43,286 bases of DNA from Paraspadella gotoi. Its lineage: Eukaryota; Animalia; Chaetognatha. Below the pieces are notes generated by a model, which made no database searches, had not been told where the DNA came from, and was given only the letters and a program-made list of their open reading frames with translations. The position numbers were made by a program, and so were the translations under genes. The first letter of the stretch is position 1; the number at the start of each line of letters is the position of its first letter. Positions 5,794 to 40,963 of the stretch are shown in pieces. The stretch covers positions 1-43,286 of the forward strand of contig JBJCIZ010000250.1 of the NCBI GenBank assembly GCA_051294375.1. Reading direction: 5' to 3'.

Positions 5794-5883
<90 letters not shown>

Positions 5884-6175
5884 TTTCTCATTTTCTAATT
5901 CTGCTATCACTATAACTGGAGAACATTATAAAGTGACTATTCATACTCATATTTTCCTTCAGCAATTTAAAAATCCGACTGGAACTCCGTACATGAGGGT
6001 CATTCCTCTCAAAGCCGAGATTCCCTGGTATTGGATCGTCCTCGATGCGGACCAAGTCGTTCGATCAAACGCCCCCGAATGGTACAACCACATCAAAGGC
6101 TTAAAACCCCACGGATTTTACAGAGATATGAGCGATCATTATCCTGTTAGGGTTGACTATGTGTTTGTCTATTGA
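2954..6175 (+). CDS. Spliced gene (8 exons, ~367 aa) for a secreted sphingomyelinase C-like phosphodiesterase (EEP/DNase I fold)
   Basis: Manually spliced exons 2954-~3108, 3242-3327, 3620-3718, 4457-4612, 4985-5153, 5333-5401, 5506-5663, 5963-6175. The product has a signal peptide (MKSIGIFLLFCLAAVSG) and the family motifs in order: SYN, DVLVFQE, GGVIVLSKFPI, DRHANKG, GTHLQA, PVILAGDLN, LDYV, SDHYPV. All junction phases fit except exon 1/2. Confidence 0.9.
3242..3327 (+). CDS. SMase-like gene exon 2
   Basis: CACAG| acceptor; TIHWMPKQPDVLVFQELFYNPAEDYLIK (metal-binding QE); |GTAAGA donor. Confidence 0.85.
3429..3502. repeat. 23-bp tandem repeat x3 with internal hairpin (intron 2)
   Basis: GACCCGTTGGGGTCAGTAGGAAT at 3429, 3452, 3475. 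Confidence 0.9.
3620..3718 (+). CDS. SMase-like gene exon 3
   Basis: CTCTAG| acceptor; 99 nt, phase 0/0; MLRDEWKDYKYATANVGNCCQLNDCPGKWDSIK; |GTGAGA donor. Confidence 0.85.
3890..4280. repeat. Degenerate CCCTAA-containing minisatellite (intron 3)
   Basis: Repeated (T)AACCCTAATC(C/T)TT units. Confidence 0.85.
4457..4612 (+). CDS. SMase-like gene exon 4
   Basis: TTCCAG| acceptor; GASVSSCKLTLSKGGVIVLSKFPIVAKNAYVFSSYKTNSGDRHANKGLVHVK; AAG|GCGAGT GC donor. Confidence 0.88.
4720..4965. repeat. 10-bp degenerate minisatellite (TTGTCTAATW) in intron 4
   Basis: TCTAA recurring every ~10 nt. Confidence 0.7.
4985..5153 (+). CDS. SMase-like gene exon 5
   Basis: TTAG| acceptor; VRKDNESFNVLGTHLQADEASPDLEAQKARFNQIGEMWVWVRDHLKIPKTEPVILA(G); |GTGAGC donor. 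Confidence 0.9.
5333..5401 (+). CDS. SMase-like gene exon 6
   Basis: TTCCAG| acceptor, phase 1; (G)DLNVILNSEEEKKTLGPRDDFQ(G) completes the GDLN motif; |GTGCCT donor. Confidence 0.88.
5506..5663 (+). CDS. SMase-like gene exon 7
   Basis: CCCAG| acceptor, phase 1; FEFHFDDSANDGSIDRVQSFDARSNFLAKADANWWQYDYDWHGTLDYVMNLK; |GTACTA donor. Confidence 0.88.
5963..6175 (+). CDS. SMase-like gene exon 8 (terminal)
   Basis: TTCCTTCAG| acceptor; QFKNPTGTPYMRVIPLKAEIPWYW...GFYRDMSDHYPVRVDYVFVY-TGA. Confidence 0.9.
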   Translation, partial: QFKNPTGTPYMRVIPLKAEIPWYWIVLDADQVVRSNAPEWYNHIKGLKPHGFYRDMSDHYPVRVDYVFVY

Positions 6176-6787: not shown

Positions 6788-7028
6788 TAACTTGTTACTT
6801 AGAGAAACAAAAAAAAGTGGCGCGTCTTTTTCCCGAACTCCGCCTTAATCGAGTCTGACTCCTTCGGGAGTGGAGAATAGAGAGGAAAAAAAATAGAGAG
6901 CGAGACAGAGAGGAAAAAAGAAAGAAAATAAAGAAGACCAAAAGGGAAATTTCGTTTTGGCCCCAAATTTAGAAAAGAGAGAAGAAGCCTTTGGCTTTTG
7001 ATCCTCACTATCCCTGGGGCCTTTTCAG

Positions 7029-9160: not shown

Positions 9161-9918
9161 ATGAAATTGGTACAACCAATATAAAAATTATCCATCATTT
9201 AATAAATAAGCCATCTTGCCCCTGACTTTGGACAGCTTTGGTGGTTTAAGGCCTCCATCATCTTACAAGATAATGACATAGCAGGTGCCCGCAAGCTTCA
9301 ATCAAGACTCTCTCACAGTCTCGTTTATTCACTCCCAGAGTACCTGGCTTCCCCTATCAATGAAGTGGAAAATATTTCAAAGAATGTTTCAATTGTATTG
9401 AAAAGACCACTCCCTTAAGTATTAGATCGGGAATACTTATTGTACTCCGGCCACTAGCAAAAAATACAAGGAGCTGAATTTTATGAAATTGGTACAACAG
9501 AATATAAAATTTATCCATTCATATTAATAAATAAGCTATCTTGCCCCTGACTTTGGACAGGCTTTGGTGGTTAAGGGCCTCCATCACTCTTACAAGATAA
9601 TGACATAGCAGGTCCCTGCAAGCTTTTCAATTCAAGACTCTATCACAGTCTCGTTTATTCACTCCCAGAGTACCTGGCTTCCCTATCAATGAAGTGGAAA
9701 ATATTTCAAAGAATTTTCAATTGATGAAAAACGACCACTCCCTTAAGTATTAGATCGGGGAATACTTATTGTACTCGCACTAGCATCAAAATACAAGGAG
9801 CTGAATTTTATAAATTGGTACAACCAATAAAAAAATTATCCATTCATATTAAAATAAGCTATCTTGCCCTGACTTTGACAGGCTTTGGTGGTTTAAGGCT
9901 CATCACTCTTACAAGATA
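9161..9918 (+). repeat. ~325-bp dispersed repeat, 2.3 tandem copies
   Basis: Units start at 9161, 9483, ~9810 (ATGAAATTGGTACAAC...). Confidence 0.85.
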
Positions 9919-15908: not shown

Positions 15909-16239
15909 AGGGAGGAAAGGAAAGGAGAGGAGGAAGGGTGGAGGGAGGAAGGAAAGGAAGAGAGGAAGGGGGTGGAGTGAGGAAAACAAGACAAGAAAAA
16001 TATAGGAAAAGGAGATTAAGAGTAGGAGATTATACGTGGAAAGAAAAAGAATTTAAAAGATTAACACAAAATAATGAAATAAAAAAATAACTGTAACAAC
16101 TAACTATAACAAAAGTAAAGTATACTAAAGTTAAAAAAAATGGTCGTTAGAATAGACTATAGTTATCCATTTTTATCAAGTTGAGAGAGACATGAATGGT
16201 AAAATGGCAATATAGAGTCAGGAAAATGGAAAATAAAAG

Positions 16240-16288
<49 letters not shown>

Positions 16289-16470
16289 AGAGAGAGAAGA
16301 GAGAGAGAGAGAGAAGAGGAGAGAGAGAGAGAGAGAGAGGTGATGGCCAAAGGGAATCCCTTTAGGGAAAAATAAAACTGAAAAAGAATTAAAGGAACGA
16401 GGGCGGATAAAAGGAGCCAGTCACGATATATTCCTTTTCATCGTGGAGAGAGAGAGAGAGAGAGAGAGAG

Positions 16471-16528
<58 letters not shown>

Positions 16529-17454
16529 TTTGAACCTTTTTCCTTGAGACTCAAATTGAAACAAATATTAGGGAAAATAAAAAATCTAATTGAATTCCAA
16601 AATTCGTTCTTACCTTTCGATTTAATCTCATGTCCTCAGTAAAAGTATACGAAAAATTAATTTATATTTTCAAACGATTGGTAATCATTAAAATGGAAAA
16701 TGGTTTGACTCTTTTCATTTATTGTACTCTTTCTAAAGAGTCCTAACTTAAAAAGGACCAAAACATAAAATTAGGATGATGTGCATAATGGACGAACGAT
16801 CAGTAGGATTACAACGGGGATTACAACTGCACTTGGCGATACAAATGAGGAAAATGTAAAATTATTAGCAGCTCAAATATCTTACAAGACAAGGCGAAAG
16901 CCAAAACGAGCATGAAGACGACAACGACGACGACGACGAAGACAACGACGACAAAGTCAATGACAGTTTCCACGTATTAATTTGATTGTTTACTTAATAG
17001 TTGATTTAATATGAGTTTAATCTATTGTCGCCAATGACGAAGACAAAAATGGCCGCTACCACGCCAACTTCGACGCCAACGATGACGGCAAAATGACGCC
17101 AACACGACGTCATAACCACCCAAAACACGACCACCTCCTTGCATTGCGTGTCCTCCGGACGAACTTGCCTTCGTGGGAAAACCGGCATCGAAAAATCTCC
17201 GAACCGGATTCTCAAGTTGCAGAAGAAGAAAGAAAAAAAAGGTTTTTGGCGGGAAATTGCAAAATATGGATGGACGAAAAAATCTGGAGAGATGCAGGAA
17301 AGGAGAAAGAGCGAGAGAGAGAGAGAGAGACGAGAGAGAGAGAGAGAGAGACGAGGGTAGGAATCCGGTGGGATAAAACAAAAAGAGATTGAACAGGAGG
17401 GCGGGCAAGGACTTCGTCATATCAGAAAAGCGGAGAAAGATGAACGGAAGAGGA

Positions 17455-17516
<62 letters not shown>

Positions 17517-19595
17517 TTTGTACCTTCGTCCACCAAAGCGTCTGACACAAAAGGCGAGAAAACATAATCAAGTCTGGCGCCAGTAATCCCTTCATCGGCC
17601 CCTTCTCAACCCCTGACTCCCCTTCCACCCCATGTCTCCCTCTTTCGCCCGGCCGCCTTGTGCACACTCTCTCCAGACCCCCTAACTCAACTGGCCCGGA
17701 TCGCGTTCGCTCCGCGGATGTCGCACACGTCAGCCTAAGGAGACATAAGGTAGATTTTTTCTTTCGTCGCCCGCCACTGAACGTTCGAAATCACCCCTTG
17801 TTCTCCTCGACGGCCGAACTTTATTTCGTTTCCGCCGTCTTATTCGTTGTCTGTTCTCTGTATTATTTACTTGTTTGTTTTACATTTTTAATGTGTCCTC
17901 TTTCTTTCTTGCATCTTTGTGTATTGTTTTGATTCTCGTTCGGTTATTTCTCAATCGCGTGCTACTGGTCTTTATTATTTTTGGAATCAATCACTTGGTT
18001 CCAATTCCGTGGCACATAGTCGTTTCGCTGATTTGCGTTTATCGTCGTTCGTTGTCAGTCTGTAAATGCTCGCTCCCGTCGATCTCAGACCTAAGGAAGG
18101 GCTCTGGTCGTGTCGTGTTGTCGTCCGTCGTACTATTCGTCGTCTCTTGTCTGTAGGCTCCACATCTCGGCTTGATCTATTGTCTCGGTTCCAAGCATTG
18201 TTTCCGCATCGACGCAAACTGTCCATCTGATATCAGTGACAGCCCTAACTTTCCCAACACACTAGTCGACCACGGTCTACCCTGTACCTGTCGTCCGTCT
18301 CGCAGCAAACCCCGTCATCCACCTTGTTGCTCACACCTTTTCCGTAGTTTATTTATGAGGTTGTTCGCCTTTGTATTTCTCCCTCTTCTCCGTCTTCTTT
18401 TAAGTGATATTCACTATCAGCACATTAATCGGTGCTCACCTGCTCAATCCAACAACTTCTGGTTCTTTTACTGTTTTAACGCTGGGGAGTATGAGAGCAT
18501 GTACATAAAATGGGTTCAACTTGTCTTTTGTCGTGCGTTGTCGTCGTCATTCCGCTAAACTGTTGTAGTCTCTAGCTGTCCGCGCCGATGCCAATCGCAT
18601 ACCGCGTCCTGGTCCATCCGTCGTTGTAGACTATATGTTTTGTAGTTAGCATGCGTCACGTCCTGTTGTATACGATTCGCCACTCCGTCCATCCGGAGTG
18701 TTAATTCGCTCGTTGTCGCTATTGTTGCGTGGCGCCAACCAGTCAGTGCCGAGTCGTTCGTCTGTATTACAGACTTCCGACCAGATCTTGCAGTCTGAAG
18801 TTTTCCCATTGTTCCGACTCCGTAACCGTCCTCAACTCCACCGGTCGGTTGTCGCGTCTTATACAAGTTACTTGTTCCTCGTTTCGAGTTGAGATCTGCG
18901 TAACCCGTTCGTCGTCCCTCGGATACTGGTTCGTACTGCTGCCGCCCGGTATATTCCTTCGCTTTTAATCGATAGTTCCATCCTGCAACAAAAAAAAAAA
19001 CATACCAAATTCCAATACTAATTTTACATGTTACACATATCATGAACTAACAATAACCTCCCAACAAAAAAGACATACAAACACAAGATTTAGAAAAAAA
19101 GAGTAATCCGTATTGCTAAAAGAATAAGATTTATCTCTCTCTTCACTCACGGAAATACACATCAATAATCTTCCCTTCTCTCTATCCTCCCTCTCTGCCT
19201 ACCTCTTCCTTCTTCTCATTCATCCTACCTTCCAATCTCTACTCTTTCTATGAGGGAGGAAAGGAAAGGAAGAGGAGGGAAGGGGGTGGAGTGAGGAAAA
19301 GAAAGACAAGAAAAATATAGGAAAAGGAGATTTTAAGAGTAGGAGATTATACGTGGAAAGAAAAAGAATTTAAAAAGATTAACACAAAATAATGAAATAA
19401 AAAAATAAACTGTAACAACTAAACTATAACAAGAAGTAAAGTATACTAAAGTTAAAAAAATGGTTCGTTAGAATAAGACTATAAGTTAATCCCATTTTAT
19501 CAAGNNNNNNNNNNNNNNNNNNNNNNNNNTATCAAGTTGAGAGAGACATGAATGGTAAAATGGCAATATAGAGTCAGGAAAATGGAAAATAAAAG

Positions 19596-19644
<49 letters not shown>

Positions 19645-19826
19645 AGAGAGAGAAGAGAGAGAGAGAGAGAAGAGGAGAGAGAGAGAGAGAGAGAGGTGAT
19701 GGCCAAAGGGAATCCCTTTAGGGAAAAATAAAACTGAAAAAGAATTAAAGGAACGAGGGCGGATAAAAGGAGCCAGTCACGATATATTCCTTTTCATCGT
19801 GGAGAGAGAGAGAGAGAGAGAGAGAG

Positions 19827-19884
<58 letters not shown>

Positions 19885-20810
19885 TTTGAACCTTTTTCCT
19901 TGAGACTCAAATTGAAACAAATATTAGGGAAAATAAAAAATCTAATTGAATTCCAAAATTCGTTCTTACCTTTCGATTTAATCTCATGTCCTCAGTAAAA
20001 GTATACGAAAAATTAATTTATATTTTCAAACGATTGGTAATCATTAAAATGGAAAATGGTTTGACTCTTTTCATTTATTGTACTCTTTCTAAAGAGTCCT
20101 AACTTAAAAAGGACCAAAACATAAAATTAGGATGATGTGCATAATGGACGAACGATCAGTAGGATTACAACGGGGATTACAACTGCACTTGGCGATACAA
20201 ATGAGGAAAATGTAAAATTATTAGCAGCTCAAATATCTTACAAGACAAGGCGAAAGCCAAAACGAGCATGAAGACGACAACGACGACGACGACGAAGACA
20301 ACGACGACAAAGTCAATGACAGTTTCCACGTATTAATTTGATTGTTTACTTAATAGTTGATTTAATATGAGTTTAATCTATTGTCGCCAATGACGAAGAC
20401 AAAAATGGCCGCTACCACGCCAACTTCGACGCCAACGATGACGGCAAAATGACGCCAACACGACGTCATAACCACCCAAAACACGACCACCTCCTTGCAT
20501 TGCGTGTCCTCCGGACGAACTTGCCTTCGTGGGAAAACCGGCATCGAAAAATCTCCGAACCGGATTCTCAAGTTGCAGAAGAAGAAAGAAAAAAAAGGTT
20601 TTTGGCGGGAAATTGCAAAATATGGATGGACGAAAAAATCTGGAGAGATGCAGGAAAGGAGAAAGAGCGAGAGAGAGAGAGAGAGACGAGAGAGAGAGAG
20701 AGAGAGACGAGGGTAGGAATCCGGTGGGATAAAACAAAAAGAGATTGAACAGGAGGGCGGGCAAGGACTTCGTCATATCAGAAAAGCGGAGAAAGATGAA
20801 CGGAAGAGGA

Positions 20811-20872
<62 letters not shown>

Positions 20873-23561
20873 TTTGTACCTTCGTCCACCAAAGCGTCTG
20901 ACACAAAAGGCGAGAAAACATAATCAAGTCTGGCGCCAGTAATCCCTTCATCGGCCCCTTCTCAACCCCTGACTCCCCTTCCACCCCATGTCTCCCTCTT
21001 TCGCCCGGCCGCCTTGTGCACACTCTCTCCAGACCCCCTAACTCAACTGGCCCGGATCGCGTTCGCTCCGCGGATGTCGCACACGTCAGCCTAAGGAGAC
21101 ATAAGGTAGATTTTTTCTTTCGTCGCCCGCCACTGAACGTTCGAAATCACCCCTTGTTCTCCTCGACGGCCGAACTTTATTTCGTTTCCGCCGTCTTATT
21201 CGTTGTCTGTTCTCTGTATTATTTACTTGTTTGTTTTACATTTTTAATGTGTCCTCTTTCTTTCTTGCATCTTTGTGTATTGTTTTGATTCTCGTTCGGT
21301 TATTTCTCAATCGCGTGCTACTGGTCTTTATTATTTTTGGAATCAATCACTTGGTTCCAATTCCGTGGCACATAGTCGTTTCGCTGATTTGCGTTTATCG
21401 TCGTTCGTTGTCAGTCTGTAAATGCTCGCTCCCGTCGATCTCAGACCTAAGGAAGGGCTCTGGTCGTGTCGTGTTGTCGTCCGTCGTACTATTCGTCGTC
21501 TCTTGTCTGTAGGCTCCACATCTCGGCTTGATCTATTGTCTCGGTTCCAAGCATTGTTTCCGCATCGACGCAAACTGTCCATCTGATATCAGTGACAGCC
21601 CTAACTTTCCCAACACACTAGTCGACCACGGTCTACCCTGTACCTGTCGTCCGTCTCGCAGCAAACCCCGTCATCCACCTTGTTGCTCACACCTTTTCCG
21701 TAGTTTATTTATGAGGTTGTTCGCCTTTGTATTTCTCCCTCTTCTCCGTCTTCTTTTAAGTGATATTCACTATCAGCACATTAATCGGTGCTCACCTGCT
21801 CAATCCAACAACTTCTGGTTCTTTTACTGTTTTAACGCTGGGGAGTATGAGAGCATGTACATAAAATGGGTTCAACTTGTCTTTTGTCGTGCGTTGTCGT
21901 CGTCATTCCGCTAAACTGTTGTAGTCTCTAGCTGTCCGCGCCGATGCCAATCGCATACCGCGTCCTGGTCCATCCGTCGTTGTAGACTATATGTTTTGTA
22001 GTTAGCATGCGTCACGTCCTGTTGTATACGATTCGCCACTCCGTCCATCCGGAGTGTTAATTCGCTCGTTGTCGCTATTGTTGCGTGGCGCCAACCAGTC
22101 AGTGCCGAGTCGTTCGTCTGTATTACAGACTTCCGACCAGATCTTGCAGTCTGAAGTTTTCCCATTGTTCCGACTCCGTAACCGTCCTCAACTCCACCGG
22201 TCGGTTGTCGCGTCTTATACAAGTTACTTGTTCCTCGTTTCGAGTTGAGATCTGCGTAACCCGTTCGTCGTCCCTCGGATACTGGTTCGTACTGCTGCCG
22301 CCCGGTATATTCCTTCGCTTTTAATCGATAGTTCCATCCTGCAACAAAAAAAAAAACATACCAAATTCCAATACTAATTTTACATGTTACACATATCATG
22401 AACTAACAATAACCTCCCAACAAAAAAGACATACAAACACAAGATTTAGAAAAAAAGAGTAATCCGTATTGCTAAAAGAATAAGATTTATCTCTCTCTTC
22501 ACTCACGGAAATACACATCAATAATCTTCCCTTCTCTCTATCCTCCCTCTCTGCCTACCTCTTCCTTCTTCTCATTCATCCTACCTTCCAATCTCTACTC
22601 TTTCTATGAGAGAGAGAGAGAGAGAGAGATTTGAACCTTTTTCCTTTGAGACCTCAAATTGAAACAAATATTAGGAAAATAAAAAATCTAATTGAATTCC
22701 AAATTCCGTTCTTACCTTTTCGATTTAATCTCATGTCCTCAGTAAAAGTATACGAAAATAACTTTATATTTTCAAACGATTGGTAATCATTAAAATGGAA
22801 AATGGTTTGACTCTTTTCATTTATTGTACTCTTTCTAAACAGTCCTAACTTAAAAAGGACCAAAACATAAAATTAGGATGATGTGCATAATGACGAACGA
22901 TCAGTAGGATTACAACGGGGATTACAACTGCACTGGCGATACAAATGAGGAAAATGTAAAATGTATTAGCAGCTCAAATATCTTACAAGACAAGGCGAAA
23001 GCCAAAACGAGCATGAAGACGACAACGACGACGACGACGAAGACAACGACGACAAAGTCAATGACAGTTTCCACGTATTTAATTTGATTGTTTACTTAAT
23101 AGTTGATTTAAATATGAGTTTTAATCTATTGTCGCCAATGACGAAGACAAAAATGGCCGCTACCACGCCAACTTCGACGCCAACGATGACGGCAAAATGA
23201 CGCCAACAACGACGTCAATAACCACGCCAAAACACGACCACCTCCTTGCATTGCGTGTCCTCCGGACGAAACTTGCCCTTCGTGGGAAAACCGCATCGAA
23301 AAATCTCCGAACTCGGATTCTCAAAGTTGCAGAAGAAGAAAAAAAAAGGTTTTTGGCGGGAAATTGCAAAATATGGATGGACGAAAAAATCTGGAGAGAT
23401 GCAGGAAAGGAGAAAGAGCGAGAGAGAGAGAGAGAGACGAGAGAGAGAGAGAGAGAGACGAGGGTAGGAATCCGGTGGGATAAAACAAAAAGAGATTGAA
23501 CAGGAGGGCGGGCAAGGACTTCGTCATATCAGAAAAGCGGAGAAAGATGAACGGAAGAGGA

Positions 23562-23623
<62 letters not shown>

Positions 23624-23820
23624 TTTGTACCTTCGTCCACCAAAGCGTCTGACACAAAAGGCCGAGAAAACATAAATCAAGTCTGCGCCAGTAATCCCTT
23701 CATCGCCCCTTCTCAACCCCTGACTCCCCTTCTCCACCCCATGTCTCCCTCTTTCGCCGCCTCCTTCCAGACCCCTTAACTCACTGGCGTCGCGTTCGCT
23801 TCCGCGTTCGACGTCGCTAA
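15909..23820 (+). repeat. Tandem segmental copies (offset 3356 bp) plus a third partial copy; probable assembly artefact
   Basis: 16174-19251 equals 19530-22607 (identical ORF sets at +3356); 22611-23820 repeats ~16500-17760; 25-N joins at 15772-15796 and 19505-19529. Confidence 0.85.
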
Positions 23821-25236
23821 GGAGATTTTTCTTTCGTCGCCGCCAGAGTTCGAATCCCCTTTGTCGCCGCGGATGTCGCTGTTGTTGTCGTCGTTGTCGT
23901 TGTTGTCGTCGTCGTTGTTGTCGTCGTCGTTGTTGTCGTCGTCGTCATTGTCGTCGTTGTCGTTGTCGTCGTCATCGTCGTTGCCTTCGTAGTTTTTATA
24001 GTTGTTGTTAATTTCTTCCTTCTCGTCTTTGTAACTATCAGCATTAATGTATCAACATCGGTTCACCTTTTAACGCGAGTAGAGCTGCCTAAATGGTTGT
24101 CGTTGTCGTCGTNNNNNNNNNNNNNNNNNNNNNNNNNNNNNNNNNNNNNNNNNNNNNNNNNNNNNNNNNNNNNNNNNNNNNNNNNNNNNNNNNNNNNNNN
24201 NNNNNNNNNNNNNNNNNNNNNNNNNNNNNNNNNNNNNNNNNNNNNNNNNNNNNNNNNNNNNNNNNNNNNNNNNNNNNNNNNNNNNNNNNNNNNNNNNNNN
24301 NNNNNNNNNNNNNNNNNNNNNNNNNNNNNNNNNNNNNNNNNNNNNNNNNNNNNNNNNNNNNNNNNNNNNNNTCGTCGTCGTCGTCGTCGTCGTAACTTTT
24401 AATCGTATTCATCCTGCAAAAAACTAAATTCAATACTATTTACATGTTACAATGAATACAATAACCCAACAAAAAAGAAAATAAAAAAGATTAAAAAAAT
24501 TTGTAAAGAAATAAATTATTTCAACGGAATAAAAAATCTCTCTCTNNNNNNNNNNNNNNNNNNNNNNNNNNNNNNNNNNNNNNNNNNNNNNNNNNNNNNN
24601 NNNNNNNNNNNNNNNNNNNNNNNNNNNNNNNNNNNNNNNNNNNNNNNNNNNNNNNNNNNNNNNNNNNNNNNNNNNNNNNNNNNNNNNNNNNNNNNNNNNN
24701 NNNNNNNNNNNNNNNNNNNNNNNNNNNNNNNNNNNNNNNNNNNNNNNNNNNNNNNNNNNNNNNNNNNNNNNNNNNNNNNNNNNNNNNNNNNNNNNNNNNN
24801 NNNNNNNNNNNNNNNNNNNNNNNNNNNNNNNNNNNNNNNNNNNNNNNNNNNNNNNNNNNNNNNNNNNNNNNNNNNNNNNNNNNNNNNNNNNNNNNNNNNN
24901 NNNNNNNNNNNNNNNNNNNNNNNNNNNNNNNNNNNTGTTAACAAAGACAAAAACAAGGTTTTAATTGTATTGATAAAAAATATAGAGCTATAGAGCTAAA
25001 GATGTAGTTAAATTAAAGATATGTATAGTACAAGTGAAGGCCTAAAAAAAGTAAGTGCCGAGTTCACTTTTTGTGAATGAGCAACGACCGTGATTGTTAT
25101 CCATTTCTATCAGTGATCTGTGATCTGTGATCCAGCCTGAAGAAATTAATAATTGTATAATTTATAGACCTATTATTTTTCGGCCGATAAAGAAATAAAA
25201 ATTTCGTCGAATACTGCTAATCCCTACCTAATCTAA

Positions 25237-25515
25237 TTTTTAGTTGCGCCGCGAGTACTCTGTAAGTCACTTTTCGGTCGGTCTGTCGGTCCGTCGGTAT
25301 GTCTGTTCATCGGTCTGTCCCACTTACGTGAAAAATGCCCATAACTTGCACATAGTTGTTTGCTCGATGCTCATTTGTTAAGAAGGGAAAATTTTTCAAA
25401 TTTATAATCCTGAAATAATAAAAAAACAAAATACGGAATTCCGATGTAGTGCGTCGGCTAAGAAAGTTATTGTAGTCATGTAGTCATGTCATGTCACGTC
25501 ATGTCATGTATTTAC
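25237..25515 (+). mobile_element. HINE/DINE-1-like interspersed repeat
   Basis: TTTTTAGTTGCG...ACTCTGTAAGTCACTTTTCGGTCGGTCTGTCGGTCC; ends in (CATGT)n; noisy copy at ~31313-31585. Confidence 0.5.
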
Positions 25516-27306
25516 ACTCTCCCTCCCTTTGTCCCTTCCCTCTCCTAACTAATCTTTCTCCAAATTCCTACTCTCCCTCCCTTTCTAAACTCTCCTTTTA
25601 CTCCTTTACCTATCTTTTTCATCCCTCTCTATCTTCTCTCTCTTTCTTCTCTTTCTTTACTTTTCTTTTTTCTCTCCTTCTCTTCTTAACCTTCTCGCCG
25701 ACGGAGAATCAAGAGGCTTTGCTCGCCAACGTCTTTACGTCTCTCTCTNNNNNNNNNNNNNNNNNNNNNNNNNNNNNNNNNNNNNNNNNNNNNNNNNNNN
25801 NNNNNNNNNNNNNNNNNNNNNNNNNNNNNNNNNNNNNNNNNNNNNNNNNNNNNNNNNNNNNNNNNNNNNNNNNNNNNNNNNNNNNNNNNNNNNNNNNNNN
25901 NNNNNNNNNNNNNNNNNNNNNNNNNNNNNNNNNNNNNNNNNNNNNNNNNNNNNNNNNNNNNNNNNTCTCTCTCTCTCTCTCCTTCCCTTGCAGCGAGAGT
26001 CGCCAAACGTGAATATCACAAGGAAGACTTCATTGCGTTTCTCCTTGGTTACCAGGCTCCAATGCTTGATTACCTAAATCGATTGCTTGGTCGCCGCCAG
26101 CAAATCACAAGAAACGCAGGTTGCCGAAATTGGTCGGAGAGTCTTTGTTTCCGGAGCCGGAAAATTGGAATTAGTCCGGAGAAAATGCTACTTTTTCGAC
26201 GCGACATTAAATCGTGAATGACTTAATCTAAATCAACGATACGTGATTAGTGATTACCTGCCATTATAAAATATATTATAACCTAACTGATAACAATATC
26301 AGATTAATTAAGATCTTTTTTAAAAAAAAAAACTCTTATAATAATACACGACAACTTTACTAAGTTACCTTCAAAAATGTTAAAACATGTGTAAAACATA
26401 AGGCTTCATGTCATTAACCAATTTTACTATAAGTTTTTTTTTTCTGATTTGACATTGCTCTTTTGCTTTGCCTTCAAAGCAAAGCCTTTGACAAAAAGTT
26501 GTATTCATGCCGGCTGAGTTCAGATTCATTTTCGCTCGTGTATTCAGCGGAGATCAGCAATAATAGATTCACTTAATTAACAAAGGCGTCGCCGCTGGGC
26601 TGAGTGGGTCGTCCATTGACGAAGAGAACGAAGTAGATTCGCGTCGGAGGAAAGAGGATAGAGAGAAAGAAGAAAATAATGGAGGAAAAGGAAAGGAAAG
26701 GAATGAGAAAAATAATGGAGAGGATGGTGAAGGGAGAAAGAAAAAAAGGGAAGAAGTAAAGAGAATAGAATGGAGGAAAGGAAACGAAAGAGAAAAATAA
26801 TGGAGAGGCTGGTGAAGGGAGGAAGAAAAAAAGGAAAAGAAAGAGAAAAAGAATGGAGAGGTTGGTGAAGGGAGGAAGAAAAATGGAAAGGAAAAAAAGA
26901 TAATAGAATGGAGGAAAGGAAAGAAAATAGAAAAAAGAATGGAGAGGACTGATAAAGGAAGAAAAGATATAGAAACAAGATCGGTTCATCCAATGTCCAA
27001 CTAAAAAGAAAGAAAAGAAATCTCCGCGAGTGAGATTTTCGAGCGAAGCAGCTTCGGACGAAGGAGGAAAAAGAAGAGAAGAGAGAGAAAGGAAAGGATT
27101 AGGAGGAGAAGGTAATAAAGAGTCGAGGGAGGATAAGAGTAAACAGTAATTAAGAGGAATGAAGGGAAGGAAGAAATGAAGGTATTAAAGAGAAGACCGG
27201 CGAGATAAGGCAAGGGAGGTGTTAAGAATCGGACATCTTACGGGGGAAAAGATGACATTCTGGTGGTCCTATCACCACAGATGATTAAAGCTGTTTCTTT
27301 CGCTGC

Positions 27307-27537
27307 GCCTCAGTGGCTCAGTGGACTAATGCACCATCCCAATGTGCGTCCCTGGTTCGAGCCCTGAGGTTGTCATGTAGAAAGTGGGATGGACCGGGTA
27401 ACCCGCCTGTAGGCATGGGCCTACTGCCGGATCCAAAGCTCTGTACTACACGAACATGCTGTCTCGCTGACGCCACGATGTGACACCGCTGCGGGTGTGG
27501 CGCCCTGTAAAACCAGCCTCTTCAACATAGCTTTTTT
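27307..27537 (+). mobile_element. tRNA-derived SINE-like / Pol III transcription unit carrying a twister ribozyme
   Basis: A box TGGCTCAGTGG 27314-27324; B box GGTTCGAGCC 27354-27363; acceptor-stem-like GCCTCAG (27307-13) / CTGAGGT (27364-70); GC-rich structured body; T6 run 27532-27537. Confidence 0.7.
27376..27450 (+). ncRNA. Twister self-cleaving ribozyme, circularly permuted (type P5)
   Basis: P5 TGTAG/CTACA; P2 GTGG/CC(-)C; conserved GA (27388-89); T1 TGGA (27390-93) / TCCA (27432-35); UAA cleavage motif 27399-401; T2 GC (27405-06) / GC (27438-39); P3 GTAGGC/GCCTAC; P4 CGGA/TCTG closing 8-nt loop TCCAAAGC. Confidence 0.75.
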
Positions 27538-27849
27538 ATAATTTGAAATATCAACGAAGGAAGTAGGCCTAGTTTATTGATGAGAAATTGAAGGAGTTTT
27601 ATTAATACAAATAAACGAAGAGGTAATGAGAATTTAAGGCGATTATGAAGAATAAACAGACAGTAAACAAATACAGTAGAAAAAGAAGAAGAAACGGGCT
27701 AGTTAAAAAATGTAACTAAATCACAAAAAGGAATGATATTTAAATACTTTCCTACTGATAACATGAGTCAATAATCTTATATGACGATTATTGGTCGAAA
27801 ATATTCGAGGTCATACGAGAAAATATACGAGACATTGCAATTAAAGGTT

Positions 27850-27940
27850 GCCATTGCAAGTTGGCATTGCGAGTTGGCATTGCAAGTTGGCATTGCAAGT
27901 TCGTATTGCAAGTTGGCATTGCAAGTTGGCATTGCAAGTT
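27850..27940. repeat. 13-bp tandem repeat (TTGCAAGTTGGCA)n
   Basis: Direct inspection. Confidence 0.9.
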
Positions 27941-28391
27941 AATCGTGATAGTTTGATCAACACATTTTACTGCATTTTCTTCTGGCAACTAAACACCATC
28001 AAGATAANNNNNNNNNNNNNNNNNNNNNNNNNNNNNNNNNNNNNNNNNNNNNNNNNNNNNNNNNNNNNNNNNNNNNNNNNNNNNNNNNNNNNNNNNNNNN
28101 NNNNNNNNNNNNNNNNNNNNNNNNNNNNNNNNNNNNNNNNNNNNNNNNNNNNNNNNNNNNNNNNNNNNNNNNNNNNNNNNNNNNNNNNNNNNNNNNNNNN
28201 NNNNNNNNNNNNNNNNNNNNNNNNNNNNNNNNNNNNNNNNNNNNNNNNNNNNNNNNNNNNNNNNNNNNNNNNNNNNNNNNNNNNNNNNNNNNNNNNNNNN
28301 NNNNNNNNNNNNNNNNNNNNNNNNNNNNNNNNNNNNNNNNNNNNNNNNNNNNNNNNNNNNNNNNNNNNNNNNNNNNNNNNNNNNNNNNNNN

Positions 28392-28423
<32 letters not shown>

Positions 28424-28939
28424 AAACTTGCAATAGATTTTCTCGCAATAAAAACCATTCACAATAGCTTTTCAGGAATTTATTTCGCTCGCCATACATT
28501 GATTATTCCCTTGACTAACGAAATTTAACCTAGATTTAAACTAACATCTTCATAAAAATAAAATACAATATATCAATATAATCAATATATATATATAGAT
28601 ATTATTATCTTGTAAGTGAGATAGAGGCCCTAAACCTCCTTAGCTTATTTAATAAATGAATGGATTATTATTACATTGGTTGGAACAATTTCTCAAACAT
28701 TCTTAGTTTTCAATAAAAGAATGAAAAAAAACATAAAAAATTACATCCAATCATGAAAGTAATTTTTGGAAAGATCGTTTGACCTTTTGACCTTCATGAA
28801 TATCACTTCAAGTCCGTCTCTTTCGGCTCTTGGCAAAAATTCCATTTTTTTGGCGAATGGATTCAATTTTTTCTCCTCATTTCCGCCACAATTTTTCATT
28901 TGAGACGTTGGACGGGCCTTATTTTCCCAGAACGCTCCG

Positions 28940-29410
28940 GAGATAGGCGGACCGAGGAAGGAGCAGGGCGTTAACCTGGAGGCCCATTTTCAAAATATAA
29001 CATTGTGTACGAGATAGGCGGACCGTGGAAGGAGCAGGGCGTTAACCTGGAGGCCCTTTTTCAAAANNNNNNNNNNNNNNNNNNNNNNNNNNNNNNNNNN
29101 NNNNNNNNNNNNNNNNNNNNNNNNNNNNNNNNNNNNNNNNNNNNNNNNNNNNNNNNNNNNNNNNNNNNNNNNNNNNNNNNNNNNNNNNNNNNNNNNNNNN
29201 NNNNNNNNNNNNNNNNNNNNNNNNNNNNNNNNNNNNNNNNNNNNNNNNNNNNNNNNNNNNNNNNNNNNNNNNNNNNNNNNNNNNNNNNNNNNNNNNNNNN
29301 NNNNNNNNNNNNNNNNNNNNNNNNNNNNNNNNNNNNNNNNNNNNNNNNNNNNNNNNNNNNNNNNNNNNNNNNGTTAACCTGGAGGCCCTTTTTCAAAATA
29401 TAACATTGTG
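28940..29410. repeat. 71-bp tandem repeat (spans an N gap; about 6 noisy units visible at 35013-35425)
   Basis: GAGATAGGCGGACCG(A/T)GGAAGGAGCAGGGCGTTAACCTGGAGGCCC...CATTGTGTAC at 28940 and 29011. Confidence 0.85.
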
Positions 29411-29686: not shown

Positions 29687-29957
29687 AAGAGAGAGATCAC
29701 GAAGTCATACAGGCCAAAAAGAACCTTTGCATTGCGTGTCGGAGAAATGCCTTGGAAACGATCGAAAATTCGAACTGGAGATTCAAGTTGAGAAGAAAAA
29801 AAAAGGTTTTTGGGAAATTGCAAATATGGATGAGTAATTGGAGAGAGAGCGAGAGAGAGAGGAGAGAGAGGAGAGAGAGAAGAGAGGGTAGGAATCGGTG
29901 GGATACAAAAGGAGATTGACGGAGGGCAGATTCGGTCTATAGAAAGGTTGAGACATG

Positions 29958-30042
<85 letters not shown>

Positions 30043-30937
30043 GTATTTGGTACCTTCGTCAAAGGTGCTGACAAAAGGCCGAGAACATAATCAGTTGCGG
30101 TAGTAATCTTATGCCTTTCACCCTGATCCTTTAATGTTTCCTTGTGCGCTCCCTGTCCGACGGTTAACTACTGGGTGTCGGTCGTTCGGTTCGATGGGGT
30201 GGCTAAGAGATTTTTGTTGTGCCGAAGAGTTGAGTCCTTGTCGGCGGATGTTCGTGTTGTTGTCGTCGTTGTGTTGTTGTCGTCGTCGTTGTTGTCGTGT
30301 GTTGTTGTCGTCGTCGCTTGTCGTCGTGTCGTTGTGTGTATCGCGTTGCTTCGAGTTTATAGTTTGTTGTTAATCTCTTCTCGTTTGTATATAGATTAAT
30401 GTATAACATGGTTACTTTAACCGCGGTAGAGTGCTATGGTTGTGTGTGTCGTGTGTCGTCTGTGTTGTGTCTGTCGCCATGGTGTTGTTGTGTCGTTCGT
30501 TGTGTCGTCATCGTTGTGTTGTGTGTGTGTGTTGTCGTACGTCTATCGTCGTCGTGTTGTCGTCTGTCGTCGTCGTCGTCGTCGTAAGTTTTAATCGTAT
30601 TATCTGCAAAATAAATTTATACTATTTACATTTACAATGATACAATACACAAAAAGAAATAAAAAGCTTAAAATAAAATTTGTAAAGAAATAATATTTAA
30701 ACGGAATAAAAAATCTCTCTGCTCTTCTCTCTTCTCTGTCTCTTCTCTCTTCCTTCTTCTTCTCTCTTTCTCTTCTCATTTAGTGTTATTTATTTCGAGG
30801 ATCATTCTATATTTCGTTATGTCGTGTGTGCGTCGTCGTTCGTGTCTCGGCTATTGAACATTGTATTTTTGGTCTCGATGGTCGCGATATTTTTTTTTTT
30901 TTTCGGGGTGGATGGTGGTTCGATTGAGAGGAGAAGA

Positions 30938-30980
<43 letters not shown>

Positions 30981-33900
30981 GAGAGGAGAGAGAGTAGGTT
31001 GTTTTCGGCTGAAGTGATCACGAAGTGTTGTTAAAAAGGACAAAAGGTTTAAATTGTGTTTGATAAATATAGAGCTATAGAGCTAATGATGTAGTTATAA
31101 TTTAAGAGATATGTTATTGTAGCAGGTGAAGGCTAAAATAAGTAAGTGAGATTCCTTTTTGTGAATGAGCATCGACGTGATTGTTTATCATTTTTATCAG
31201 TGATATGTGGTTGTGATCCCAGCTGAATTAATAATTGTATAATTTTGACTATTTTTTTCGGCGATAAAGAAATAAAATTTTGTCGAATACTGCTATCCTA
31301 CCTAATGTAATTTTATAGTTTGCGCCGCGAGTATCTGTAGTCACTGTTCGGTCGGTTGTCGGTCGTCGGTATGTCTGTTCATCGGGATTGTCTTAGTGAA
31401 AAATGCCAATAAGTTGCACATATTGTTTGCTCGATGTCATTTGTTAGAGGGAAATTTTTCAAATTTATAAGTCATGAATTATAAAAAACAAGATAACGGA
31501 GATGTCCGATGTACGTGGTCGGTAAAGGAAAGGGTTATTGTGTAGTTGCATGTAGTATGTTGTCACGTCTATGTCATGTATTTACACTCCTCCTTTGCTT
31601 CCTCTCCTAACTATTCTTTTCCGAAATCTATCTCCTTCGGTAAACTCTTCCTTTTATCTCCTTTAGAACCTATTTATTTCACCTTCTCTCTTTTCTGTTT
31701 TTTTTTTACTTTTTTTTTTTTCCTTTTCTCTTTAGATAGGCTTTGTTCGCTGAGCAGGAATCAAGAGGCTTTTGCTTTTGCATCTGTCTTTTACGTTCTC
31801 TGCTCTCTCTTCTACTCGTCTGTCTCTTTCTTCTTCCTCTTATCTCTTCTCTCTTTGTGTGTTGTTGTGTCTCTGGTGTTTCGTCTCTTGTTCTGTCGGT
31901 TCCTGTTCTCATTTAGTTCCTGTTCCTGGAAACCTCGCGTATGGTGTGATCATGTTACTGAGGTTGCCTGTTGTGGTTTGCAGAGGCCGGGAGGATAAGT
32001 CTTCAATTCATATTTGGTGCTCTCTCTTCTCTCTCTTGCTTGACGTTTTGCTCTTCTCTCTCTTCTCTCTCGTGTGCCCTTTGCAGCTGAGGAGTTTGCT
32101 AAATTCGTGAATTATCATACAAGGAAGAGCTTTCATTGTTGGTTTCTCCTTTGGTTCAGGCCAATGTGCTTTGTTACTAAATGATTGCTGTGGTCGCCGA
32201 GCAATGATCACAAGAAACAGGTGTTTGTTGAATTGGTTGGTTAGAGTCGTTTTGTTTCCGGGATGTGTCGGTATAGAATTTGGAATTAGTGGCTGGTAGA
32301 ATTTGTGGTGCTACTTGTCGATCTGCGAGTAGTTAAAGTGTGAATTGAGTTAATTATCATCGATACTTTGTATTAGTGGATTTTACGTCTGCATTGATAT
32401 ATAATTATTATGAGCGCTAATTCTGATTAAATTAGTAGATTATTAAGGATCTTTTTTAAAATAAAAAAACTCTTGATAAATGATACACGACAACTTTAAG
32501 TTACCTCAAATATGTTAGAAACATGTGTAAACATAAGGCTTTCATTGTCTTATTGAAGTCGAATGTTACTATGAAGTTTTTTTTTCTGATTTGGATCATC
32601 TTTTTGCTTTGCCTTTCAAGCAGAGCCTTTGATCGAAAAGATTGTATTCAGCCGTTTTGAAGTTGAGATTCATTTTTTTCGCTCTCATGTGTATTGTTTT
32701 TGCTGTGAGATGGCTAATGATAGATTCAGCTTAATGTAAAAGGGTGCCGTGGGCTGAGTGGGTGTTATTGACGAAGAGAAGAAGTACGATTCGCGTTGGA
32801 GGAAAGAGGATAGAAGAAAGAGTAAAATTAGATGGAGAAAAGGAAAGGAAGGAATGAGAAGAAATTTGGAGAGGATGGTGAAGTTAAGTTATAAGTAAAA
32901 AGGGAAGAGTGAAAGAGATGATGAGGAAGAAGAATAGAAAAAAATGGAGAGGGGCTGGTGAAGGGAGGAGAAAAAAAGAAAGAAGAAAAAAGAATGGAGA
33001 GGTTGTGAAGGGGAATATGAATTAATGAAAGAAAAATAAGATAATAGAATGTTGTGAAGGAGAAGAAAATTGAAAAGAAGAATGGAGAGGATGGAATAAT
33101 GGAGAAAGATATAGAGACAAGATCGGTTCATCAATGTCCAACTAAAATATGTAAAGGAAAGAAATTCGCGAGTGAGATTTTTGGAGCTCGAAGCAGCTTG
33201 GCGAGAGGAGAAATAAGGAAGAGATAGGAGAGAGAGGGAAGGATTGGAGGAGAAGTGTATGAAAGAGTCGAGGTGAGGATATGGAGTAAACAGTAATTTT
33301 AAGATGTGAATGAAGGGAAGGAAGAAAGGAGGTATTAAAGAGAAGACCGGATATTAAGGCAAGGGAGGTGTTGAGAGGGGGGTCGGATCATCTTTACGGG
33401 GAAAGATGACATTCTGGTGTGTCCTATCACGACATGATGATTTAAAGTGTTTCTTTTGGTGCGTTCTAGTGGTCTCAGTGACTAATGCACGATCTCCATG
33501 GTGCGTCGTGGTTGTAGCCTGAGTTTATGTAGAAAGTGGGATGGACGGTACACGCTGTAGGCAATGGGCACTGCGGATACAAAGCTTCTGTACTACACGA
33601 AATGCTGTCTCGTGTACGGACGGATGTGACACCGCTGCGGGTGTGGCGACTGGAAAAACAGACTCTTAACATAGCTTTTATTATAAATTTTGAAATGATC
33701 AGAAGGAAGTAGACTAGTTTAGTGATGAGAATTGAAGGAGTTTTTTATGACAAATAAACGAAGAGTAATGAGATTTAAGGCGATTCTGAAGAATTAACAG
33801 ACAGTAAACAAGTAACTTGTAGAAAAGAGAAGAAGACGGGCTAGTTAAAATGGTAACTAAATCACAAAAGGAATGAATATTTAAATACTGTCTACTGATA

Positions 33901-35660
33901 ACATGATCAATAATGTTATTATTGACGATTTTATTGGTCGAAATATTCGAGGTCATACGAGAAAATATACGAGAGCTATTGCAATTATAATGGTTGCTTG
34001 CAGTTGGCATTGTCGAGTTGGCATTGCAATTGCATTGTGCATTTTCTTTGTATTGGCTAATTGGCTTGCATGTTGGCATTGAAGTTTGCGTGATTATGTT
34101 TGCACTCACACATTTTACTGCATTTTTTTCTGGTATTTATTTATCTTTATTATTTTTATAATTTGTAGTCTAAAGAAGTGTGGCCCATTTTCTCTTCTTC
34201 TCTCTTCTTTCTCTCTCTCTCTCTCTTCTCTCTCTCTGCTTCTGTCTCTCTTCTCTTTCTTTCTCTCTCAATTCTTTGCCAAGAGGAGTTCTATTTTTAG
34301 TACCCCCAAATCGCTTCGATACTTATTTTATGAGGAACTCTCATCTTTTTATGGCGAGGAAACAGTTTTCGCCAGATTCGCGTAGATAGAATTAAATGAG
34401 CGAGAGATCGAGAGAGAAGAGATGAGAGAGAGAGAGAGAAGCGAGAGGAGATGAGAGAGAGAGAGAGAGAGAAAAAGAGTAGAGAGAGATGAGGAGAGAG
34501 AGAAGAAGAAATCAATAGATTTCCTCTATAAAAAACCATTTCGACAATTTTTTATTGCTTTGCAGGATTTTATTTCGTGTATCTGCATACATCTGATTAT
34601 CTTGACTATCAAATTTAACTAGATTTAAACTAACATTATAAAATAAAATACAATATTAATATATTAATATATATTATAGATATTATTATCTGTAAGTGAG
34701 ATAGAGGCCTAAACTCCCTTAGTTATTTAATAATGAATGGATTATTATTACATTTGGGTGGAGAACAATTTCTCAAACATTTCTTAGTTTTCAATAAAAG
34801 GAATGAAAAAAAAAGTAAAAAATTACATCCATATGAAAGTATTTTTGGAGATTGTATTGACCTTTTGACCTTCATGAATATCACTTCAAGTCAGTCTCTT
34901 TCGGCCTTGGACAAAAATTGCCTTTTTTGGGAATGGATTATTTTTTCACTCATTGTCGCAATTATTTTCATAATTGAGCGTTGGACGGGCTTATTTTCCC
35001 AGAACGCTTCCGGAGATAGGCGGACCGGGAAGAGCAAGGCAGTTAACTGGAGGCCGATTTTCAAAATATAACTTGTGTACGAAATAGGCGGACGTGGAAG
35101 GAAGAGGGCGTTAACGCTGGAGGCCTTTTTCAAATATACATTGTGTACGTAGATAGGGAACCGTGGAAAGGAGCAGGTGTTAAACCTGGAGCCCTTTTTC
35201 AAAATATAACATTGTGTAGGAGATAGGCGGCCGAGGAAGGAGCGGCGTTTACAACTGTGGGAGGCCATTTTTCAATATAACATTGTGTACAGAGATGAGG
35301 GGACCGAGGAGAGGAGCAGGGCGTTAACACTGGAGGCTCTTTTTCAAAATATAACATGTGTAGAGTAGGCGGACGAGGAAAGAGAGGGCGTTAACTGTGA
35401 GGCGCTTTTCAAAAATATAAATTGGTCTCAGTTTCATCTTAAATTCGGAAGATTAGTTTATTTTTTAGGTTTCAAGATTAGGTTGAATTGAAGGTAATGG
35501 TTAAGGATATAGTTAATTGAGTAAGGGTTGAGGTTAGGTGCCAAGTTAGGGTTAGAGTATTGAGTAGTTTAGTTGATTATATTAAGTGACCGGTATTAGG
35601 TGGAGAATACTAGGATATGTTTGGATAAACCAAGATTTATCTACATTTTTAATAATGTAG
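29687..35660 (+). repeat. Noisy duplicate of ~23230-29661; probable raw long-read insertion
   Basis: Colinear with dense indels; starts right after the 25-N join at 29662-29686. Confidence 0.85.
33463..33679 (+). mobile_element. Error-laden second copy of the tRNA-SINE/twister unit (probably the same locus from a raw long read)
   Basis: Colinear with 27307-27537 inside the noisy duplicated block 29687-35660; twister part ~33528-33597. Confidence 0.55.
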
Positions 35661-39133: not shown

Positions 39134-39249
39134 ACCCGAGTAGTTCTCGGGCTGAAATAAATAAAGAAACACTCTTTGAGTGTTCCTCTCCACGGAAATC
39201 TTTAGTAAAAGGCGAAAGATTTGTGCGCTCTGAAGAGAAACCAGAGTTG
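39134..39249 (-). ncRNA. RNU5: U5 spliceosomal snRNA (variant Sm site)
   Basis: Minus strand reads ACTCTGGTTTCTCTTCAGAGCGCACAAATCTTTCGCCTTTTACTAAAGATTTCCGTGGAGAGGAACACTC...; invariant loop 1 GCCUUUUAC (plus 39205-39213); 3' hairpin GCCCGAG-AACTA-CTCGGGT; length ~116 nt. Confidence 0.93.
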
Positions 39250-40548: not shown

Positions 40549-40830
40549 TCAGCTCCTTGTATTTTGATGCTGTAGCGTGGAGTACAATATAGAATTNNNN
40601 NNNNNNACAATTGAAACATACTTTGAAATATAAAACCACTTCATCGATCGGGATTCGGGGAAGCCAGGTATTCTGGGAGTACATAAACGAAACTGTGAGA
40701 GAGTCTTGATTGAAAGCTTGCAGGGATCTGTTATGCAATTATCTTGTAAGAGTGATGGAGGCCCTCAACCACCAAAGCCTGTCCCAAAGTCAGGAGAATA
40801 ATTCATAATATATAACGAATGGATAATTTT
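40549..40830 (-). repeat. Copy of the ~325-bp dispersed repeat (spans a 10-N gap)
   Basis: Same orientation and sequence as 2398-2665, plus the AGCTCCTTGTATTTT segment. Confidence 0.8.
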
Positions 40831-40963
40831 TTTCGACCGACGAAGTCTCTCCATCTCTATCTCTTTTTCTTCTCACCAAATCGTCGCGGCTCGAGGGATG
40901 AGTGAGAAGAGAGAGAGAGAAAGAGAGAGAGAAGAGACGAGAGAGAGAGAGAGAGAGAGAGAC

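Follow-up and report, generated by a model that had tools for sequence, protein, structure and literature searches.

A 266-bp repeat at positions 27259 to 27524 (+) is a solo long terminal repeat (LTR) of a high-copy LTR retrotransposon, and it joins an RNA polymerase III (Pol III) promoter to a divergent, permuted twister-like motif. It lies in a window (the whole stretch analyzed, 43,286 nucleotides) of animal-type DNA that is rich in microsatellites and contains assembly gaps. The parent retrotransposon was likely short and non-coding. We favor, with slightly less than even confidence, a mechanism in which this high-copy LTR element with a tRNA-type promoter has its RNA cut once per LTR by the twister-like motif, and the released piece is circularized and copied by a partner Gypsy element.

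The limits of the repeat were defined using contigs from 8 of 10 public sequencing runs (7 of the 9 organism-A runs and 1 metagenome run) aligned to the stretch, reaching 30 letters past the unit ends, a reach within which no two-LTR element or internal region appeared. Based on the contig depth plateau and on loose ends, the unit spans 27259 to 27524 and not 27307 to 27537, as an earlier note had proposed. Summed contig depth over 27318 to 27506 was 235,000 to 389,000 in run X1 (versus 65 to 72 on the unique flank) and 428,000 to 631,000 in run X2 (versus 161 to 176). From about 2 to 6 × 10^5 inside the unit, it fell to 440 (X1) and 627 (X2) in the bin 27528 to 27548, and across four other run alignments it was 11, 0, 0, and 1.4 in the bin 27530 to 27542. 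Loose ends accumulated at 27258/9 and 27524-6, and their flanks were mixed and AT-rich; no tail consensus (poly(A), microsatellite, or simple repeat) was present at the loose ends in seven organism-A runs. The 48 bp upstream of the tRNA-like head belong to the repeat. This 5′ leader (27259 to 27306, +), which we interpret as U3-like, folds into a short hairpin and is covered by repeat contigs at lower depth, the left end of the unit lying several-fold below the plateau; a related leader occurs in run X10. A T6 run that had been taken to end the unit does exist at 27532 to 27537 (+), but it is host flank outside the family, beyond both the depth plateau and the point at which the empty allele resumes. 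The data indicate a family of the order of thousands of copies at most, since summed contig depth is not a copy number. Separately, two stretches of the right flank (27549 to 27590 and 27633 to 27674) are themselves moderately repeated, with depth in the thousands.

Both filled junctions of the locus were present in X1. In each of two samples, X2 and X3, one contig runs from 27254 directly into 27525, skipping 270 bases; the insertion is therefore polymorphic. The 4 letters at the empty-site junction fit either side, which at this one locus defines a 4-bp target-site duplication with its left copy in host DNA at 27255 to 27258 and its right copy at 27525 to 27528 (both +). The earlier note had named target-site duplications as a check, and the one found, with its empty allele in X2 and X3, joins the high contig depth and sharp ends in bearing out the multicopy mobile unit that it had suggested. 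We conclude that the family is real and recently mobile. No head-to-tail joint of units was among the contig junctions listed. A metagenome scan with a 15-mer from the window returned 119 stretches, none of them homologous beyond 22 to 30 letters, and viral contigs scanned for the motifs of the element gave no match.

The window copy and the bulk of the family disagree at seven places (27282, 27304, 27429, 27444, 27451, 27470, and 27479). An A-to-C variant at 27401 made up 13% of X3 depth and was absent in X5, X6, and X9; it is probably an artifact of that run. Several runs also contained internally deleted copies, some joining 27344 to 27500, with loss of the B box and the whole twister, and others joining 27321/5 to 27369/76, with loss of the B box only. 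A second, error-ridden copy in the window (33413 to 33668, +) was ruled out as an independent insertion because it has the same flanks within an indel-ridden duplicated block (79 mismatches and 329 gap positions over 2 kb). That block, roughly 6 kb long, is repeated at 73 to 85% (23246 to 29066 versus 29727 to 35134), with mostly indels separating the two versions, and a further 3.3-kb near-perfect tandem duplication with 2 mismatches occupies 15941 to 22614. Both duplications look like assembly artifacts, the 6-kb one from an uncorrected long read.

The identity of the repeat is seen most clearly at its right end. In some copies, an 18-letter motif starting with TGG follows 1 nt after the terminal CA, and 17 of its 18 letters are those of the tRNA-Trp primer-binding site of Gypsy-32_NVi given in the supplement passages of PMC10886601. 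By our own arithmetic, a match this good to one of about fifty tRNA ends would arise by chance with a probability of less than 1 in a million. The motif is the consensus of loose ends in X1 (11 contigs at an agreement of 0.49) and in X2 (17 contigs, 0.57). A further 4 contigs of X2 carry a diverged form, and 2 contigs of X9 show the first 10 letters. None of the ten runs is recorded as RNA; X9, which may be one, has contigs over the repeat and across its boundary with the primer site. The site was not among the loose ends listed for X3, X5, and X6. A scan for the primer site returned 40 loci, none similar to the unit. Just before 27259, a G-rich purine stretch was detected in X3 only (3 contigs, agreement 0.68). 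The left terminus is TC, not the usual TG, and the right terminus is CA. Passages describing the crustacean CsRn1-like element GyRex2 report both a Trp primer site and non-TG...CA ends (PMC3587641).

From the CA end, the 4-bp duplication, the primer site, and a candidate purine tract, we read the locus as a solo LTR with TC...CA ends, 56% GC, and no T4 run on its sense strand. Its 3′ part (27454 to 27524, +), interpreted as U5-like, is GC-rich, ends in CA, and is bounded by loose ends in X1, X2, and X9. Three of these hallmarks, namely, the CA end, the duplication, and the Trp primer site in some copies, together with the lack of a tail, overturn the tRNA-SINE identity proposed earlier; the retrozyme alternative in the same note goes in the right direction. 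A Helitron reading was rejected on account of the target duplication and the primer site, and derivation of the LTR 3′ part from an RTE 5′ untranslated region (5′UTR) was not supported, given that 1,808 of 2,000 shuffles scored as high.

The promoter lies in a tRNA-like segment at 27307 to 27370 (+). Pattern searches placed an A box at 27314 to 27324 (+) and a B box at 27354 to 27364 (+), as the earlier note had stated; the former fits the TRGCY/YGG pattern given for Helenus elements in PMC10886601. Of 7 A-like and 3 B-like matches to the two patterns, these form the only pair in the window at tRNA spacing. A cloverleaf tRNA is absent, also as noted earlier: ARAGORN predicted 0 genes. The segment is closed by a 7-bp stem (27307-13/27364-70; 6 Watson-Crick pairs and 1 G-U; pair probabilities of 0.71 to 1.0) that had been described as acceptor-like. 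The stem exists, but it is out of tRNA register and is not an acceptor stem. When the A and B boxes are used to fix the register in standard tRNA numbering, pairing occurs at only 2 of the 7 acceptor positions; the stem instead takes the 3′ strand of the T arm and folds the tRNA-like part into one long hairpin.

The twister-like motif (27373 to 27453, +) follows directly, starting 3 nt after the stem rather than the roughly 5 nt estimated earlier. Head and motif co-occur in other copies, as the earlier reading would have it: single contigs span 27308 to 27500 and 27317 to 27523 in X1, 27294 to 27492 in X6, and 27305 to 27450 in X9, and both parts sit on single diverged contigs in X1, X6, X9, and X10. 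The helix names P1 to P5, T1, and T2, beyond those in the published template, and the labels U3 and U5 follow general usage. Aligned to the template in Table 1 of PMC8501958 and the Rfam twister-P1 consensus, the motif has the permuted P5 order: P5, AAA, P2, GA, T1, a linker, UAA, P2, GC, the P3 hairpin, P4, a U-NNN-AAGC loop, P4, and P5. On the forward strand, P5 (27373-80/27446-53) has 7 of 8 pairs, P2 (27385-87/27402-04) 2 of 3, or 3 with a bulge, P3 (27409-14/27419-24) 6 of 6, and P4 (27427-31/27440-44) 4 of 5. The T1 pseudoknot (27390-93/27432-35) is fully paired (4 of 4); one of its pairs is A-U in place of the C-G of the published pattern. T2 is formed by 27405-06/27438-39. Judged by position against the pattern in passages of PMC8501958, the predicted scissile bond lies between 27399 and 27400 (U^AA, +), and G27388 occupies the place of the general-base G. 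The catalytic G, the UAA, both pseudoknots, P4, and L4 are thus present. The closed P1 hairpin is missing; P1 is vestigial, replaced by a 6-nt linker (27393 to 27398, +). Passages of PMC8501958 and PMC7761336 report cleavage by twisters whose P1 is weak or missing. The linker here is partly self-complementary and, speculatively, P1 could form between two molecules.

Three of the seven differences fall in P4 and P5, which are fully paired with the bulk letters, and the window copy is probably a weakened one. In nested folding of this copy, a model outside which pseudoknots fall, P4 and P2 had a pair probability of 0. The T1 strand formed part of a longer, competing helix, and the predicted cut site could be covered by a 4-bp hairpin.

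A descriptor fitted to the motif matched once in the window and in 0 of 100,000 dinucleotide shuffles of the unit, and across 174 loci (379 kb) it matched only a natural phage twister; because it was relaxed to fit P2 and made after the motif had been seen, these rates are optimistic. The core module alone matched 7 of 100,000 shuffles. Compared with the RTE-type twister of locus L123, the motif core was equaled in score by 5 of 2,000 shuffles and the short 5′ module by 828 of 2,000. The P5-type twister proposed in the earlier note is upheld as to order and descriptor match but not by the Rfam twister models, which gave no relevant match at E values up to 10, even on 95 bases; as a control, Rfam found a natural P1 twister at 61 bits. 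A covariance model built from phage twisters of P5 order also missed the motif. It was trained on 54 of 60 natural examples (2 with imperfect P2 and 4 with the longest P1 were left out) that had been chosen by an exact P4/L4 pattern, and it is consequently narrow. Among the 60, a 3-nt P2 occurs in 34 and is fully paired in 33 of these, and the P1 linker is 14 to 52 nt long in all 60, versus 6 nt here. No variant at ≥1% that would repair the P1 linker or P2 was among the variants listed. A loose P5 pattern found 57 distinct chance matches, 0 of which had the twister loop. Contig depth in X9 showed no step at the predicted cut site, a place at which contigs cannot reveal cleavage. As for other ribozymes, the hammerhead core string is absent from the unit, which has no Rfam hammerhead match, and a weak CPEB3/HDV-like Rfam match (E value of 0.19) is far below threshold and on the minus strand, opposite to the promoter. 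We conclude that the motif is very probably twister-derived and not a canonical member of the class; cleavage is predicted from its sequence.

Other twisters came to light among the loci compared. Phage contigs L243 to L361 carry 60 distinct twisters of P5 order, 34 of which have a 3-bp P2 that shows covariation; in most, P3 is not closed by a C-G pair, and two twisters occur together on several of the contigs. Locus L121 has a textbook P1 twister 3.4 kb from a type II hammerhead (3483 to 3544 and 6901 to 6968, both −), and the twister scores under the Rfam gathering score (61 versus 67.2 bits). Two tiny scaffolds in bacterial assemblies (L123, 1 to 668, and L131, 1 to 351) contain the 5′ end of a schistosome-type RTE element, its twister truncated, and in L123 this end continues into an endonuclease-like frame; these pieces are probably contamination.

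Elsewhere in the window, a U5 spliceosomal snRNA gene at 39134 to 39249 (−; 94 bits) was the only Rfam match at the gathering score. A 322-bp unit is present in about 2.3 tandem copies at 9161 to 9918, with dispersed partial copies at 2397 to 2663 and 40607 to 40833, and the hammerhead core string is absent from it. An open frame at 5876 to 6172 (+) ends in an SDHYPV motif. It had no Pfam or homologue match; its Atlas look-alikes were exonuclease-endonuclease-phosphatase proteins at 0.92 to 0.93, with low recognition, and it may represent the terminal exon of a DNase I-like gene. Searches with open reading frames of the window, aimed at the host taxon, gave no match.

In the mechanism that we favor, Pol III would transcribe the full two-LTR element. 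Because the LTR has no sense-strand T4 run, such a transcript would have no terminator of its own. The twister would cut both LTRs at the same bond, freeing an RNA of exact unit length without an R repeat, and this cut-to-cut RNA would keep the promoter of the 3′ LTR. It could then circularize and be reverse transcribed by a Trp-primed Gypsy partner. This circle model is taken from plant LTR retrozymes, which have the same geometry: in passages on them, the cleaved piece circularizes, binds a tRNA primer, and gives solo, full, or multimeric cDNA (PMC7761336, PMC4918200, PMC9695139). RtcB is reported to close animal retrozyme RNAs in vitro (PMC7229834). Kojima objected that a SINE would be truncated by a working ribozyme downstream of its internal promoter (PMC5786205, in part), and the earlier note had inferred that cleavage would part the promoter from the 3′ portion. 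Since the cut-to-cut RNA of a two-LTR element carries the promoter of its 3′ LTR, both the objection and the paradox of promoter loss would vanish; a ribozyme that cuts downstream of the promoter can be reconciled with a circle from a two-LTR element but not with a monomeric SINE. The 230-, 93-, and 136-nt pieces predicted earlier could arise at this locus, and only here, by virtue of the chance flanking T6: Pol III could reach this run and yield a 230-nt RNA, in which the modeled nested fold favors the helix that competes with P4 and P2. More specifically, we propose, tentatively, that this is the first LTR retrozyme in animals, a recently active, thousands-strong miniature element that combines a Pol III tRNA promoter with a P1-less permuted twister; the ribozyme would stand in for the terminator and R repeat, the RNA circles would be Trp primed, and the self-complementary linker may provide P1 between two molecules.

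A serious though less probable reading is that the locus is the solo LTR of a Helenus-like terminal-repeat retrotransposon in miniature (TRIM), with the twister as a dead or very slow passenger. Such an element would instead make a linear Pol III RNA that begins in the 5′ LTR and extends beyond the corresponding start position of the 3′ LTR; this RNA would be copied by ordinary R-region strand transfer, as in Cassandra. The vestigial P1, the mismatch in P2, the three negative model searches, and the competing folds of the window copy are all consistent with loss of activity, and passages of PMC10886601 indicate that most known TRIMp3 need no ribozyme. Retention of both pseudoknots and the catalytic letters argues against it, as does the compensatory T1 pair. 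P4 and P5 are also fully paired in the bulk copies, a weak argument, as a young family keeps its stems without selection. This reading further leaves an LTR without a terminator to define R, whereas many, not all, of the Helenus LTRs described have T4 to T6 after the B box (PMC10886601, in part).

That the LTR belongs to an autonomous CsRn1-like Gypsy element of several kilobases with gag-pol, whose tRNA-like part and twister serve transcription, 5′ processing, or cap-free translation, is improbable. A Trp primer site, a 4-bp duplication, and unusual termini are all in keeping with that clade, and passages of PMC8501958 report that translation is promoted by cleaved RTE twisters, but two indirect lines of evidence point to a shorter element. 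Pol III boxes suit short elements, as argued in part of PMC10886601, and the order-of-thousands depth is TRIM-like when set beside the 5,575 LTRs given there for LTR-11_DR.

We give very little credence to a tRNA-SINE, or a bipartite SINE composed of a tRNA and an RTE 5′UTR, mobilized by a LINE through target-primed reverse transcription. The tRNA-type boxes and the resemblance of the core to an RTE twister are suggestive of such an origin, the lower depth at the 5′ end could reflect 5′ truncation, and bipartite SINEs of this kind are described as common (PMC5786205, in part). The unit, however, lacks a poly(A) or microsatellite tail, its supposed T6 end is flank, 48 bp precede the head within it, a primer site lies downstream in other copies, and its 3′ part is unlike the RTE 5′UTR tested. 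Equally remote is chance resemblance to a twister in a GC-rich LTR, which would account for the failure of every covariance model and for a descriptor fitted afterwards but not for twelve fixed core letters in order with five helices, found in full in none of the shuffles and as the core module in seven.

We compared the unit with known systems. Helenus (TRIMp3), as described in PMC10886601, has tRNA-like A and B boxes inside the LTR, and its animal members share with the unit 4-bp duplications and primers matching tRNA 3′ ends, including Trp. These elements are reported there to be Gypsy dependent and to leave many solo LTRs, and the only arthropods listed are wasps. Unlike the unit, no ribozyme is named for them: in the text searched, “twister” has 0 matches and “ribozyme” occurs in a reference only, and searches of supplement passages with short twister strings found none. 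Their LTRs mostly have TG...CA ends and a tRNA part in the 3′ half (PMC10886601, in part), whereas ours has a TC left end and places the tRNA part in the 5′ half, with the motif in the 150 nt after it, a comparison made from the LTR of the unit alone. The Cassandra and Ajax TRIMs also have a Pol III promoter in the LTR, but it is 5S derived; Cassandra RNA is described in PMC10886601 as linear, with a short terminal repeat.

Plant LTR retrozymes, according to passages of PMC4918200 and PMC9695139, carry a self-cleaving motif in the LTR downstream of the promoter, the predicted equivalent of the arrangement here. They share the 4-bp duplication, primer site, and solo LTRs, and their purine tract may be set beside the stretch seen in X3 only. 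They differ in having a type III hammerhead and a tRNA-Met primer, versus a twister-like motif and tRNA-Trp, and for them cleavage and circles were shown and no tRNA-derived promoter is reported in those passages, whereas cleavage and circles in our unit are predictions. In animals, schistosome Sm-alpha combines a Pol III promoter with a small ribozyme, and metazoan non-LTR retrozymes are likewise short repeats with ribozymes (PMC6765202, PMC7229834, both in part); as described, both are tandem and hammerhead based, without an LTR, primer site, or purine tract. The motif itself shares with the phage P5-order twisters the order of parts, the 3-nt P2, and the GA...UAA...GC...U-NNN-AAGC core, and its P3 arm is like that of the RTE/Perere-3 T-variant twisters (PMC8501958, in part). 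It differs from these twisters in the 6-nt linker for P1, the P2 mismatch, and its location in an LTR instead of at a LINE 5′ end, and its T1 pair is unseen in the 54 aligned phage twisters, which were selected for a canonical loop. By analogy, then, the element is predicted to work like an LTR retrozyme and appears to be built like Helenus. Within the titles, abstract openings, and selected passages of open-access papers, we found no description of a twister in an LTR.

LTR retrozymes are known with hammerheads in plants, and TRIMs with tRNA promoters are known without ribozymes. If the proposed mechanism is true, circle replication by way of a ribozyme in the LTR would have arisen again in animals with a different ribozyme, and it would account for the way in which a terminator-free Pol III LTR sets the ends of its RNA. 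It would also give the twister a role outside LINE 5′ ends. The two-LTR reading tests the argument of Kojima against an active ribozyme behind an internal promoter, an arrangement that would be possible in an LTR. If the motif cleaves, it would be a natural minimal twister missed by current models, and more of its kind may hide under the labels “SINE” and “tRNA pseudogene.”
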